A stretch of 64,000 nucleotides of DNA from Promethearchaeia archaeon (GTDB lineage: Archaea > Asgardarchaeota > Lokiarchaeia > Sigyniarchaeales > SOKP01), in contig JAHQWL010000002.1 in the NCBI GenBank assembly GCA_029856155.1, positions 1 to 64,000 on the forward strand, in the 5' to 3' direction. The notes below the pieces were generated by a model, which had not been told where the DNA came from, ran no database searches, and was given only the letters and a program-made list of their open reading frames with translations. A program made the position numbers and the translations under genes. This document shows positions 29,720-35,162 of the stretch, in pieces (the stretch's first letter is position 1; every line of letters begins with the position of its first letter).

Positions 29720-32266
29720 TTATAAGTAAATAAAATAGTAATATATAGGAAATTGTGGTACTCCAATTAAACATAAAATAAACTGTGCTGCTATACTTGG
29801 TAAAATACTATTTGCTTTAAAACTCAAATATGTAAATAAATAACAAGGAAAAGAAAAAAGTAATATTATAAGAATTATATAAAAATAAGAAAATAGATTT
29901 AAGGGAAAACCTGCAAAATCTAAAAATACTATATAATAGATTAACAGTAACAATGTATCTAAAAATATTGCTTTTCTTTTATTTAAATTCTCTAATAGAA
30001 TTGTTAAAATAATACCATGAAAGAAAACTTCTTGCCAGATTATATTAGAAAAAAATAAACTTAAGGTGAAAATATCCCAAATTTCAAAGTAGAATACTTC
30101 ATCAATTATTAAACATATCGAAGAAATAAGAAATAATAGAAAAATTAATATTGAGACACCCCAAATAAAATATTTAGTTAATTTTTTAGACCACCTAGTT
30201 TTAATGCTGACTAAATATTGACTGATTGGTTGTTTTCCATATGGTAAATTGAGAACTTTTGGAATTATGATGATGAATAATACCATAGAACTTAAATTAT
30301 AAAAAATAAGTATTAATAATTTTTTAATCACAATTTCAATTTGATATGATGGGTTATAAAAATAGTAATAATGAATAGGAGGTATTGATTGATTTATATA
30401 AAATAATAGATAAATAGTCCCAAAAAACAATATCATTAGTAAAAATATAGAAATCCATGGATGCCTTAATAAATATGTATTTTTTGTTCCTTTCATAGAT
30501 TTGGGTTCTGTTTTAAGAAATGGTTTTGATTCTGGAATAATTGGCAGAATTTTATTGAAGAGAAGAATTGCACAGAGAAGACCTATAATGGATATTGATA
30601 GTAAAAAAATTACTAAATTAAGGAATTCGGTGTAGGTGTAAAAAAGTCTCAAAAAAAATATTATTCCTAAGGAGATACTATACTGTATCCCTATGATTAA
30701 AATCCATTTTAAAAAGCGGTTGCCTTGGTTAATTTCTTCTATAACATAATGATGTTTAAATTTACCAAAAAAAATGATTCTTAAGTCAAATATCAAAATA
30801 ATAAACATCCAACAAAAAAATAAAGAAGTTATTTCAGCTAAGAGTAAAATTATGAATTTAGGTGTAAAAATGTATAATAAAATTGGGAAAAAAACAGCAA
30901 GAGTCTGTAGAAAAATTAGTAAAATTAATTTTGCTTTTGCTTGATCACGATGGTTGATAGGTAATGAGGCAAGAACAGATTCTCCAGAAATTTCTACGTT
31001 TAATATACCATATACTAGCATACTTGAGATAACAGGGTTAAAAATTAATATACTTATTAAATTTAAAAGAAGATCTCTCTCTATTACGGTTTTTTCACCC
31101 ATATTAATAAGACCAAATGAAAATGTAAAAATACATGAAAATATTATTGGGATTATCATACTCAAGAGCATTTTGAGATCTCTTGTAGCAATTGATAAAT
31201 CTTTATGTAAATATGCTAAAATTGGTGAAAGTGTTTTAATATTTATTTGGATCTCATTTTTAAGCGAATTGATTCTATTTCCTTCCTTAATTTCTTTAAG
31301 ATTAGAGTAAGTAATTCTTTGAAGTGATTTTGATGCTTTTAAATGGATCAACCATGTTAAAGATACAAATACTCCTAATCCAATAAAAATACTTATCAAT
31401 AAGAATAAGGGTATTCCTTTATTCACAATAATAAATGATATGAAATAACTTGGATTAAATGGATATGGTAATATACTTAGAATTGTATTTATTATTGAAA
31501 TATCTTTAATTATAATAATTAATTGAATAACATTATCAAATGAAAATAAAATCCACTGGACCATATAAATTCCTCCAAGAATTACAATAATATAACTAAG
31601 ATTATGAAACAATTGAATTGCCAATCCTTTTTTTGAAGTAATTTTATTGAAAGCTAAGATTCGACTTAGTCTTTCTCCAAATAAAATAATAATATCAAAA
31701 CATAGTATGAAATTCAAGAATGAAATACCTAAAGATACAAAAAAAATAATCATATTTTGCGTTAAAACGATCATTGTAATTGGAAATGCTAATATTAGTA
31801 CTACTATTGGAATATCAAAAGTCCTAAAAATAGTTAAAGCAACTAACTTATGTAACTTATCTCTTGAAATTGGTAATGTTTCAAACCATCGAAAAACACT
31901 TCCTGATAGGATCATACTAAATTCTAATAACCCCATTAGAAAGAAATTTAAAAATTGTAAACTAAAATATAAGGTTAAGATAATACCTCCAATCAAAATT
32001 ACACTTTCCACAGAAATATTAAGATCTAATAAGTTATCAATAATATTTAAATAAACTAATGAAGGTATTATAGGTAGAAAGCCAAAAATTAAAGCATAAA
32101 TGATTTTGGAAATTAAGATCTTTATTTTGAGAATTCTCTGTTTTTTTTTGTATCTTTCTAAAATTTTTAACTGATAAATTCCCTTAGTTTGAAGTAAGGA
32201 TTCAAGATAAAGCTCTTTATTCACTTTTTTTGCTATTGAAAACAAACTCAATTTTTTTTCAGACAT
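29720..32266 (-). CDS. Large polytopic membrane protein (ABC-exporter permease-like, with degenerate CPBP-like C-terminal domain)
   Basis: About 20 hydrophobic segments. Two LPI-containing permease-like halves (ETLPISR, ASLPINH). C-terminal WQEVFFHGII resembles the CPBP EExxxRG motif. Confidence 0.55.
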   Translation of the reverse strand: MSEKKLSLFSIAKKVNKELYLESLLQTKGIYQLKILERYKKKQRILKIKILISKIIYALIFGFLPIIPSLVYLNIIDNLLDLNISVESVILIGGIILTLYFSLQFLNFFLMGLLEFSMILSGSVFRWFETLPISRDKLHKLVALTIFRTFDIPIVVLILAFPITMIVLTQNMIIFFVSLGISFLNFILCFDIIILFGERLSRILAFNKITSKKGLAIQLFHNLSYIIVILGGIYMVQWILFSFDNVIQLIIIIKDISIINTILSILPYPFNPSYFISFIIVNKGIPLFLLISIFIGLGVFVSLTWLIHLKASKSLQRITYSNLKEIKEGNRINSLKNEIQINIKTLSPILAYLHKDLSIATRDLKMLLSMIIPIIFSCIFTFSFGLINMGEKTVIERDLLLNLISILIFNPVISSMLVYGILNVEISGESVLASLPINHRDQAKAKLILLIFLQTLAVFFPILLYIFTPKFIILLLAEITSLFFCWMFIILIFDLRIIFFGKFKHHYVIEEINQGNRFLKWILIIGIQYSISLGIIFFLRLFYTYTEFLNLVIFLLSISIIGLLCAILLFNKILPIIPESKPFLKTEPKSMKGTKNTYLLRHPWISIFLLMILFFGTIYLLFYINQSIPPIHYYYFYNPSYQIEIVIKKLLILIFYNLSSMVLFIIIIPKVLNLPYGKQPISQYLVSIKTRWSKKLTKYFIWGVSILIFLLFLISSICLIIDEVFYFEIWDIFTLSLFFSNIIWQEVFFHGIILTILLENLNKRKAIFLDTLLLLIYYIVFLDFAGFPLNLFSYFYIILIILLFSFPCYLFTYLSFKANSILPSIAAQFILCLIGVPQFPIYYYFIYL

Positions 32267-32728: not shown

Positions 32729-32756
32729 AAATGATCACATTTATATATGATCATTT
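32729..32756 (+). promoter_or_regulatory. Inverted repeat (AAATGATCA-N10-TGATCATTT) bracketing a TATA box
   Basis: Perfect 9-bp arms at 32729-32737 and 32748-32756 around TTTATATA (32740-32747), about 40 bp upstream of ATG 32787. SD GAGGTGA at 32770-32776. Confidence 0.6.
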
Positions 32757-32786
32757 ACATATACTATTTGAGGTGAGTAAGTTAAA

Positions 32787-33065
32787 ATGCACATTTCAAA
32801 ATATGAAATTAGATCGAAAGAAAAAGCCGAGAAAAATCTCGAAAATATAAAGGATGCCATAAAAGGCTTATATGAGATCTTGGATCTTACTCTTAGTAAG
32901 GATGATTTTTATTATGAAGCTGGTAAAGATAATATTACGGCAATTTATAAGAATCTGATTGAGTTATTATTGAATGATTATGGGCTCAGACATCTCTTAA
33001 AGAAAATCCAGAACTCAGAAGTAGATTTAAATATTGTGTTAAATGAATATTTAGCTAACGCATAG
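32787..33065 (+). CDS. Hypothetical helical protein (92 aa)
   Basis: ATG start with strong SD (GAGGTGA) and an upstream TATA box. No recognisable motif. Confidence 0.8.
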   Translation: MHISKYEIRSKEKAEKNLENIKDAIKGLYEILDLTLSKDDFYYEAGKDNITAIYKNLIELLLNDYGLRHLLKKIQNSEVDLNIVLNEYLANA

Positions 33066-33120
33066 ATTTTTCTTCTATTTTGATAAATTTTTTATATTAA
33101 TTAACGCTTAATTAATTTTC

Positions 33121-33197
33121 CAGTTCCCTGATCTCGTCCATGAATACTCACCTCAATCAGTGTTCAACCCTTCTTCAAGGAGATATCAGGGAACTGA
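33121..33197. repeat. Structured direct repeat, copy 1 (hairpin)
   Basis: CAGTTCCCTGAT (33121-33132) pairs perfectly with ATCAGGGAACTG (33185-33196). 33143-33197 matches 34764-34818 at 51/55 nt. Confidence 0.9.
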
Positions 33198-33381
33198 TCC
33201 TTATCCTATTATTTTTCTTCTTGAGTGATTGATACATCATATTTATTTAAATTAAAATATTTGAATATTTTGTATAACGACATTTTTGTCATTATTGTGT
33301 ATGAGATTTTTTGAAATGTTCAATATAATCATGGTTTCAGATTTCATGATTGTATGAATCAATTGGTGATTAATAGATACT

Positions 33382-34635
33382 ATGTGGGAGATTGTTAAGG
33401 ATGGTCAATATTCACTCATTAGGGAAATAGTTACCAAAAATCCGGAAATAATTCATAGAAGAAACCGTTTCGGATCTACGCTTTTGCATGCAGCTGCATA
33501 CTATGGAAATATTGAAATAGCTAAATTTTTGGTCGCTTCAGGTGCGGATATTTTCGCAAAGGACAAAAATGGATATACCCCTTTGCTAGTTGCTGGTGGA
33601 ATGAAGAAAAAGAATTTGGTTCAATATCTCCTTAATCTGGAACTCAATTATTCTATTAATAAAAATTCACAAAAAATAATTTCAGGGATTTCTGGTAAAA
33701 AATACGACTTTTTTATCAGTTATAAAAGCCAGAATGTTTATATCGCTAGACAGATCGTTGATCAATTAATATCAAGTGGTTATAACATCTGGTTTGCTGA
33801 ATATAGGATTTTATTGAAAGATCGCGGTCAATTTCAGACCGTTATCGACGAAGGACTGGCTAATTCCGAACAAGCTATATTATTTACCAATAAAATTTAC
33901 GCAGAATCTCCTTATTGCTCTGATGAAGCTGAAAAGTTGCTTCAAAATTATGGACAAGATAAAATCATCGAAATCAAAATTCCAGCAGAACCAGAAGTTC
34001 ACCAAAAATTTCCTGCCCTTGCAGGATGTAAATCGGTAGAGACATTCGATGTAAATGAGATGATCAACTTTTTAAAAAAGACTGTGGCACCAGCGGTTTG
34101 TACAATCGAAATAATACCATCAAAACCTGAATTTAAATTCGAAGGAGTCTGCAAAGGAGCTCCTTTTACCCTCTATGCATCAGGATGGAAGATTACACAA
34201 AAAGGAACCTCTTATCTGGGAGATATCGGAAATGGTCTCGAAATTAGATATAAAAAGGTCAAACAGAAGTTTTATATGAATATACACTTCAGCATCGATG
34301 AATCCGAGCTGGCTAAATTCAAATCGATGGATATTGTTTCCGCAGATGATAGAAAATTATATGATGCTCTCTTAGAATATTCAAAAAAACATGTTTCACG
34401 ACTAGATGCTGAAGTGTTGGGAGCTCACTTGGTTTTTCACGGTGGGGCTAGTCAACTAGCTCTTACATATTGGATGGGATACTGGACAAGAAAGTATAGC
34501 ATCACTCTTATACATCCAACATTGAAAAAGCCTGTAGAATTTTTGTTTACATTCGGTTTCCAGGGTACATTTCAAGAATACTGCCGATATGTACATATTA
34601 TGGATTCTGTTATAAAGTCTTTGGAATGGAAATAA
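33382..34635 (+). CDS. Ankyrin repeat + TIR domain protein with unknown C-terminal domain
   Basis: ANK motifs GSTLLHAAAYYGNIEIAKFLVASGAD and GYTPL. TIR box YDFFISY and SPYCSDE (putative catalytic Glu182). Confidence 0.85.
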   Translation: MWEIVKDGQYSLIREIVTKNPEIIHRRNRFGSTLLHAAAYYGNIEIAKFLVASGADIFAKDKNGYTPLLVAGGMKKKNLVQYLLNLELNYSINKNSQKIISGISGKKYDFFISYKSQNVYIARQIVDQLISSGYNIWFAEYRILLKDRGQFQTVIDEGLANSEQAILFTNKIYAESPYCSDEAEKLLQNYGQDKIIEIKIPAEPEVHQKFPALAGCKSVETFDVNEMINFLKKTVAPAVCTIEIIPSKPEFKFEGVCKGAPFTLYASGWKITQKGTSYLGDIGNGLEIRYKKVKQKFYMNIHFSIDESELAKFKSMDIVSADDRKLYDALLEYSKKHVSRLDAEVLGAHLVFHGGASQLALTYWMGYWTRKYSITLIHPTLKKPVEFLFTFGFQGTFQEYCRYVHIMDSVIKSLEWK

Positions 34636-34750
34636 TAGATTTAAACTTTATTAAGTTTTGATTTTACTTTTTATTTTAATAAAATGATTCTCTTGAATTT
34701 TATAATAAATATTTCCCAATTAGATAAAAAATTCTTGTTGAGAAAGTGGG

Positions 34751-34820
34751 AGCCAGCCCCTAAAATCCTCACCACAATCACTGTTCAACCCTTCTTCAAG
34801 GAGATATCAGGGAGCTGACC
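34751..34820. repeat. Structured direct repeat, copy 2 (hairpin followed by T-tract)
   Basis: 32-nt core TGTTCAACCCTTCTTCAAGGAGATATCAGGGA (34782-34813) is identical to 33161-33192. Outer stem CAGCCCCT/AGGG(A)GCTG. Confidence 0.9.
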
Positions 34821-34892
34821 TTTTTTGTTTTTTTATTTTTCTCAGTATGCCAGGATTTCACTATAAAATAAACTGAATGAAATAAAAAATTT

Positions 34893-35162
34893 TTACTCAG
34901 AACCAAATTGTCTATCTAAGTCAATCACTAAAGGAACTTCTTTTTCATCCTTCATAACAACAACTTTCAAAACACCATTCTCGATTGTAGCGCTCACAGG
35001 CTCAATCTTGGACACTTTTCCCCTTGTCCTCGAATTTAAACAAGTATGGGCCTCATCATAAAGATAGCATTTAGTACAGCAGAATCCAACTGGCATATAG
35101 CCGACAATGGAACATTGGTCATATGCATCGCAATTACAATTATTACACATTTTTTTCATCAC
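34893..35162 (-). CDS. Small Cys-rich protein with Hsp20-like C-terminal strand motif
   Basis: Eight Cys in the first 41 aa. SATIENGVLKV resembles the alpha-crystallin AxxxNGVL motif. Confidence 0.7.
   Translation of the reverse strand: MMKKMCNNCNCDAYDQCSIVGYMPVGFCCTKCYLYDEAHTCLNSRTRGKVSKIEPVSATIENGVLKVVVMKDEKEVPLVIDLDRQFGSE

Follow-up and report, generated by a model that had tools for sequence, protein, structure and literature searches.

In hok/sok, tac-fbi pairing of the mRNA ends keeps the full-length transcript inert until its 3' end is removed. Genes for structured RNAs can also play a part at the DNA level, as tRNA and tmRNA genes serve as att sites of integrative islands. Contacts between the two ends of an mRNA have been described in bacteria: the icaR mRNA of Staphylococcus aureus, on which RNase III acts, carries in its 3' region a C-rich anti-Shine-Dalgarno (anti-SD) motif that pairs with its own SD region (PMC3868564), and a 5'/3' untranslated region (UTR) interaction is known for hbs of B. 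subtilis (PMC5737220). Among haloarchaea, both UTRs of one mRNA are jointly needed for translational regulation (PMC2636863), and in Haloferax volcanii most transcripts are leaderless and most 5' UTRs are without an SD motif (PMC3986360). Integron attC sites and CALIN arrays have been reported in Asgard archaea (PMC9668308).

The locus described here lies in a 64,000-nt stretch of DNA from a Promethearchaeia archaeon (Lokiarchaeia), analysed at its full length and referred to as the window. A small gene encoding a 92-aa protein is followed by a hairpin element (EL, copy 1), the loop of which is antisense to the ribosome-binding site (RBS) of that same gene (Table 1). The locus resembles icaR and hbs in having a 3' motif complementary to the SD region of its own gene beyond the generic SD, with a predicted block to the ribosome; the complementarity amounts to 10-13 nt in 29 loci, with 5 nt outside the 7-nt core. 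It differs from them in that its host is an Asgard archaeon and not a bacterium, that a long conserved hairpin presents the motif in its loop, that the pairing would extend to what is predicted to be the very 5' terminus of the mRNA, and that EL is also duplicated as a boundary of inserted genes. With hok it shares a small-protein mRNA whose predicted 5' end is complementary to, and would pair with, the loop of a 3' hairpin. However, the product is a hydrophilic helical protein of 92 aa, not a hydrophobic membrane toxin of ~50 aa, and its gene is single-copy, chromosomal and placed in conserved synteny; no overlapping leader ORF is evident among the ORFs of the window, and no antisense RNA gene was noticed. 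The haloarchaeal UTR interplay offers an archaeal precedent for paired-UTR control, whereas the present locus specifies an explicit duplex of 10-13 nt that would cover the SD.

Table 1. Features of the locus, with positions counted along the window
Feature	Position	Strand	Basis or remark
TATA-box-like TTTATATA of the 92-aa gene	32740-32747	+	between GATC-containing repeats
RBS block TTGAGGTGAGTA	32768-32779	+	SD GGTGA at 32772-32776, 10 nt 5' of ATG (32787)
Gene for 92-aa all-helical protein (88/92 aa in relatives)	32787-33065	+	ORF; conserved in Promethearchaeota
Spacer with T5 (33067-33071), T4 (33078-33081) and T6 (33088-33093)	33066-33119	+	stop-to-hairpin interval
EL copy 1, complete hairpin	33120-33200	+	closing stem 33121-33132 with 33185-33196, then T-rich tract
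Loop motif TACTCACCTCAA, antisense to RBS block	33145-33156	+	80 nt past TAG stop (33063-33065)
ANK-TIR gene, inserted cassette between EL copies	33382-34635	+	Pfam Ank and TIR_2; absent from single-copy loci
EL copy 2, decayed partial duplicate	34750-34822	+	homology to copy 1 from 34764; motif degenerated to CCTCACCACAA
89-aa Cys-rich gene, right flank of hotspot, followed by hdrC and hdrB	34893-35162	-	synteny in at least 20 loci

The complementary block and the 92-aa gene

A preliminary description of this DNA had reported that the RBS block is the exact reverse complement of the loop motif, and a check of coordinates and letters bore this out. Across the genome (4.1 Mb in 104 contigs, or 8.2 Mb on both strands) the 12-mer has two occurrences, the RBS and its antisense in the hairpin, while its 10-mer core has three. 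Shuffling of the window, which has a GC content of 30%, leads one to expect 0.18 matches to the 12-mer with at most one mismatch, and a 12-nt match to the 40-nt 5' region was attained by 0.045% of 20,000 shuffled hairpins. When ~2,170 40-mers upstream of ATG codons in the window were compared with the hairpin, the RBS of the 92-aa gene was the sole non-self match of at least 12 nt, and the runner-up reached 10 nt. A chance origin of the 12-nt match is unlikely. Part of it is nevertheless generic: the 16S rRNA 3' tail of a same-genus genome ends GGATCACCTCCT, and TCACCTC (7 nt) is all that the loop motif has in common with this tail, so that only 7 of the 12 nt represent general SD/anti-SD complementarity and the other five bases are gene-specific. 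Given a strong SD, five extra matching bases would arise by chance in ~1 in 440 cases, as estimated from base composition. The 12-bp RBS:loop duplex has a calculated energy of -18.1 kcal/mol, compared with -11.5 kcal/mol for SD:16S pairing, and opening costs ~3-4 kcal/mol on each side. Because this duplex would form a pseudoknot with the hairpin stem, it cannot appear in nested minimum free energy (MFE) folds, and it is absent from them.

A separate likeness concerns splicing signals. The loop AAUACUCACCU (window 33143-33153) can be likened to the 5' end of U1 snRNA, which we take to be AUACUUACCU, and the RBS block GAG/GUGAGUAAGU (32770-32782) to what is presumably the 5' splice-site consensus. 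Rfam searches gave no U1 match to the loop element, and the likeness is probably a coincidence of SD-like sequences.

The TATA box of the 92-aa gene keeps a fixed 28-nt spacing to TTGAGG across 27 distinct orthologous 5' regions, and the bases between it and the conserved 14-nt block that holds the RBS vary among orthologues. Archaeal TATA boxes lie at a usual distance from the transcription start, and by this measure the start is predicted at ~32768-32772, on the complementary block itself; pairing would then connect the 3' element with the very first nucleotides of the mRNA. The TATA box is surrounded by TGATCA ... TGATCA repeats (window 32733-32756), which are kept in most orthologous promoters. 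These GATC-containing repeats may be an operator.

The 92-aa protein has 102 homologue clusters, every one of which is annotated 'hypothetical'. It contains no Pfam domain, and no significant match was obtained in Pfam, NCBIfam, a PDB profile search, Foldseek or the ESM Atlas; one NCBIfam match, to CmeU, remained below threshold (E 0.0077). Its AlphaFold model comprises three main helices (pLDDT 89.5), and by eye the sequence shows many charged residues and is without a long hydrophobic stretch. The conserved gene upstream encodes a 493-aa pyridine-nucleotide-disulphide oxidoreductase. In most relatives it is adjacent to the 88/92-aa gene, unlike in the window, where an 848-aa gene (29720-32266, minus strand) with a hydrophobic, multi-pass membrane-like sequence and no Pfam match separates the two.

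Conservation of the pair and structure of the hairpin

EL is present in 26 of the 154 genomes of the order, nearly all of them from one family, with 1-5 copies per genome that are nearly all clustered on one contig in direct orientation. A close orthologue of the 88/92-aa gene (E < 1e-35) occurs in 24 genomes of the order, and EL lies 3' of the gene in 22/22 genome loci and 7/7 metagenome loci, which together make up the 29 orthologous Promethearchaeota loci whose downstream DNA was read. RBS-loop complementarity of 10-13 nt is found in every one of the 29. On the 5' side, the UTR block TT(G/A)AGGTGAGTAAG (14 nt) is invariant over 27 distinct sequences, whereas the neighbouring genes (493-aa, hdrC, hdrB and 89-aa) have 5' conserved runs of just 4-6 columns in the same genomes. 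This block stays conserved for 2-3 nt (AAG) past the complementarity, so an additional constraint acts on it. On the 3' side, (A)AUACUCACCUCA / (A)ATACTCACCTCA is the most conserved stretch of EL in alignments of 45 and 26 copies. Fold-back was rejected as a trait of the wider protein family, since homologues of at most 70% identity show no such 3' complement, just matches of A-runs to T-runs; own-genome paralogues of the 92-aa gene (~30% identity) are without EL. One contig (L081, DATKTW010000087.1) was deposited as 'Candidatus Nanopelagicaceae bacterium' and bears this Lokiarchaeal locus; the label is probably a binning or labelling error.

Variation within the duplex is confined to a few loci. 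In L040 and L102, a C-to-T (C-to-U) change in EL opposite a G of the RBS gives a G.U pair; in L047, L048 and L100, the same EL allele is accompanied by a G-to-A change in the RBS and gives an A-U pair; and the sister locus L049 retains G-C. Losses are confined to terminal pairs (L040 and L055), and no disruptive change inside the duplex was seen in the 29 loci. The series from G-C through G.U to A-U weakly suggests a stepwise compensatory path of the kind that RNA pairing predicts. It represents one or two events, both of them GC-to-AT transitions, the commonest change in a 30%-GC genome, and a second G.U case may share ancestry with the series; conservatively rated, the significance of the covariation is p ~0.03-0.2, suggestive but short of decisive.

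The hairpin itself is well defined. Copy 1 folds with an MFE of -29.2 kcal/mol (z = -4.9), and the general layout of EL is a closing stem of 11-12 bp and an inner stem, with a loop of ~30 nt that opens with UACUCACCUCA(A). Over 26 copies, 90% of the cells in the stems are paired, compared with at most 52% when partners are slid, and one-sided changes in the stems are mostly U-A to U.G, compatible with the plus strand only. This G.U pattern points to EL acting as top-strand RNA rather than as DNA. No Rfam 15 family matched EL at gathering scores, a permissive threshold gave only chance-level matches (E 0.87-9.4), and ARAGORN detected no tRNA or tmRNA in it. A small ORF antisense to copy 1, recognised by eye (SD and ATG, 9 codons), was discarded, its ATG being missing in other EL subfamilies.

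Between the stop codon and EL, relatives have a spacer of 23-82 nt. U-tracts are archaeal terminators (PMC8716108, PMC7515710), and the T-tracts that follow the stop codon in the window may be early terminators, leaving a share of the transcripts without the hairpin. Termination at these tracts could be a regulatory switch, or else EL could be made separately. No conserved promoter in the spacer is positioned alike across EL subfamilies, and the spacer of just 23 nt in one relative leaves little room for a separate EL promoter. A T-rich box, TTTT(A/C)NTTTTTCT(C/T)A, stands after most EL copies (window 33201-33225), and the conserved unit runs ~20 nt past the stem; this box is probably a terminator.

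Secondary copies and the insertion hotspot beside the hdr operon

The frame of the locus is constant: the 493-aa oxidoreductase gene, the 88/92-aa gene, EL, from none to many variable genes that are usually closed by a further EL, a convergent 85/89-aa Cys-rich gene, hdrC and hdrB. In four genomes the insert is missing and EL is present just once, which makes a lone EL behind the small gene the simplest ancestral state. The inserts (window 33200-34750; loci L031-L050) include ANK-TIR, a 1010-aa TIR protein, SIR2-TPR, short prokaryotic Argonaute (pAgo) with partner genes, and LRR, together with DprA/SLOG (with a weak, sub-threshold PRTase-like match), GNAT and DUF401. They can comprise several genes, on both strands, and the extra EL copies sit at the ends of these defence-gene insertions. 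About 50 ORFs from the inserts yielded no Pfam match to an integrase, transposase or recombinase. Viral contigs held no copy of EL and thus supplied no candidate attP.

Copy 2, at the far side of ANK-TIR, consists of the 3' two-thirds of EL and folds no better than its shuffles; a short-word BLAST search of the own genome returned no EL beyond copies 1 and 2. Among 26 secondary copies, identity to the primary copy is 0.70 in the 5' arm, 0.90 in the motif and 0.85-0.92 on the 3' side. Secondary copies often reach back over the spacer into the 92-aa ORF and include its last 18-65 nt, and distal copies start at the motif; the boundaries of the duplications vary between a point 65 nt within the ORF and the loop. 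Retention of the motif despite decay of the 5' arm hints at a function besides cis pairing, or at a duplication boundary at the motif. Several relatives show further rearrangements of the region. In G095 (L043 4723-5096) a deletion corresponds to window 33441-34700, so that just 58 nt from the start of the ANK-TIR ORF remain; in G056 (L031 13620-14873) ANK-TIR is broken into two ORFs, Ank (123 aa) and TIR (273 aa); and in G062 (L032 17096-17171) an inverted EL bounds a 7.8-kb insertion between the 493-aa and 88-aa genes, on the opposite side of the small gene.

Two known kinds of DNA landing site invite comparison. Like attC sites and CALIN arrays, ELs are direct, imperfectly palindromic repeats that separate variable genes at one locus, here with no integrase adjacent. 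Identity with attC was nonetheless rejected: R boxes (RYYYAAC ... GTTRRRY) are absent, and the arms read CAGTTCCCTGA ... TCAGGGAACTG on both strands, so that GTTCCCT ... AGGGAAC stands in the reverse arrangement. Moreover, many inserts are opposite-strand or multi-gene blocks, and neither intI/attI nor a series of co-oriented cassettes was found; the EL boundaries are not fixed and may take in the final part of the 92-aa ORF; and the G.U pattern is that of a top-strand RNA. The resemblance to tRNA-type att sites lies in a structured-RNA locus at which direct duplicates of the 3' part flank serially accumulated foreign DNA. EL differs from these in being neither a tRNA nor an Rfam family, no integrase was found in its inserts, and its duplicated segment varies in length. 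The pattern of inserts agrees with insertion of the Campbell type or with a homology-driven exchange of cassettes at the 3' UTR.

A candidate 5'-3' UTR lock and the competing readings

With a probability of roughly one half, EL is a structured 3' element of the 88/92-aa transcript that silences its own message in cis, as a 5'-3' lock of the icaR/hok kind. From the observed sequences, fold, conservation and complementarity, we infer co-transcription, a start site, pairing in vivo and an effect on translation, along the following lines. Transcription would read through the U-tracts past the stop codon and join EL to the mRNA, whereupon the EL loop would pair over 10-13 bp with the 5' end of the same mRNA and its SD block UUGAGGUGAGUA. 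The RBS:loop duplex, predicted to be stronger than SD:16S pairing, would keep ribosomes from binding and might in addition shield the mRNA's 5' end. The long form of the transcript would thereby silence itself; translation would be open to processed forms and to shorter ones that stop at the first U-tract. EL has also been duplicated at the far end of the defence genes inserted here, either in full along with its spacer or as the 3' two-thirds alone.

Two other accounts of the conserved match are unlikely, yet each explains part of the data. EL may be a separate small RNA, produced from its own promoter or by 3'-UTR processing, that acts in trans as an anti-SD on the 92-aa mRNA, with the cassette copies adding repressor. 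This would suit the U-tracts that part the ORF from the hairpin, the TATA-like TTTTATATTA that stands ~26-30 nt ahead of the hairpin start in the window's subfamily, the T-tract with which the hairpin closes, the 90% identity of the motif in secondary copies even where the 5' arm is lost, and the inclusion of the upstream spacer in some duplicates. However, the promoter-like box is not positionally conserved across subfamilies, one locus leaves it a spacer of 23 nt, and the adjacent gene is the sole genome-wide target of at least 11 nt; other matches of 8-10 nt, considered as trans targets, were set aside as ordinary strong SDs of unrelated genes, for acyl-CoA-ligase-like and Zn-ribbon proteins (putative, named from their sequences). 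The other account, which we also consider doubtful, takes EL as an element of DNA or termination, a terminator hairpin combined with an att-like landing pad, whose match to the RBS is incidental: a C-rich, anti-SD-like loop happened to face a strong SD, and five lucky flanking bases were frozen by independent constraints. Direct copies at one locus do bracket variable defence genes in many genomes, the insert is absent from single-copy loci, the distal copies repeat only part of EL with a bias to its 3' side, much like those at att sites of the tRNA type, SD/anti-SD complementarity explains 7/12 nt, and few events stand behind the covariation. Yet the five extra bases (~1 in 440 by chance) are kept in 29/29 loci, an invariant 5' block of 14 nt stands out as exceptional among these genomes' 5' regions, and the G.U intermediates and strand-specific G.U pairs of the stem indicate RNA; the lack of integrase or transposase Pfam matches in ~50 insert ORFs and of copies on viral contigs, and duplication boundaries that vary unlike those of a precise recombination site, count against a landing pad of the att type.

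It is very improbable that the two 12-bp sequences form a DNA inverted repeat around the 92-aa ORF, as recombinase or regulator sites for an invertible segment or for DNA looping. They do make a perfect pair, 365 bp apart, that brackets the ORF, and matched changes at both sites would preserve an inverted repeat just as they would a duplex; but the orientation of the gene relative to its flanks is identical in 29/29 loci, the sites of L040 and L102 are non-identical and yet pair as G.U in RNA, one of the repeats lies within the loop of a conserved, strand-specific RNA hairpin, and no recombinase gene was found nearby. Scarcely credible, finally, is the proposal of the preliminary description that every copy adapts its variable part to the gene lying before it, with a segment tuned to the upstream RBS and copy 2 locking the ANK-TIR mRNA. 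TGGTGA (33364-33369) and TGATTGT (33347-33353) do lie ahead of the ANK-TIR start and are both contained in the complement of copy 2. As a signal, however, this match is split into 7+6 nt by a 10-nt gap and falls within the chance background: among 238 control 5' regions, 16 of them from 88/92-aa orthologues, 2.5% have a run as long as that of copy 2 and 9.7% an equal or better duplex energy. The supposed variable part turned out to be the most conserved motif of the family, degraded in copy 2, which removes the basis of the idea, and copy 2 has no significant fold. Complementarity between 14 secondary copies and the 5' regions of their co-directional upstream genes is 3-8 nt, within the control range, and G056 combines the same ANK-TIR gene and the same 5' region with a different EL variant, GCTCACCTCAATTA. 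Judged from its sequence, copy 2 is a remnant at the edge of an inserted defence gene and is predicted not to target ANK-TIR. The fold-back or anti-SD idea is thus plausible for copy 1, whose exposed loop is antisense to the RBS in 29/29 loci, and fails in its modular part.

The self-silencing lock could be extended to a dual-purpose EL, which we consider improbable. In addition to a kissing-duplex lock covering the SD, EL would then provide a portable stretch of homology, a 'landing pad' with which Lokiarchaeia would swap defence cassettes in the absence of a dedicated integrase, and the anti-RBS copies borne by the cassettes would tie 92-aa protein expression to how loaded or how active the defence island is.

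We know of no earlier sequence-defined 3' element that sequesters its own Shine-Dalgarno site in Asgard archaea or in Archaea generally, and post-transcriptional control in the Asgard lineage is, to our knowledge, essentially uncharted. If the pairing is not real, the locus comes down to a terminator hairpin of the ordinary sort that later came to serve as a recombination scar. EL also marks a recurrent insertion hotspot of TIR, SIR2, pAgo and LRR genes beside the hdr operon, a useful guide in the search for defence islands of Asgard archaea. The cis lock makes a cleanly testable prediction, with its 10-13-nt duplex, its natural G.U and A-U variants and the long versus short 3' isoforms; if it is true, EL would be the first archaeal variant known to us of the 5'-3' pairing found in icaR, hbs and hok.
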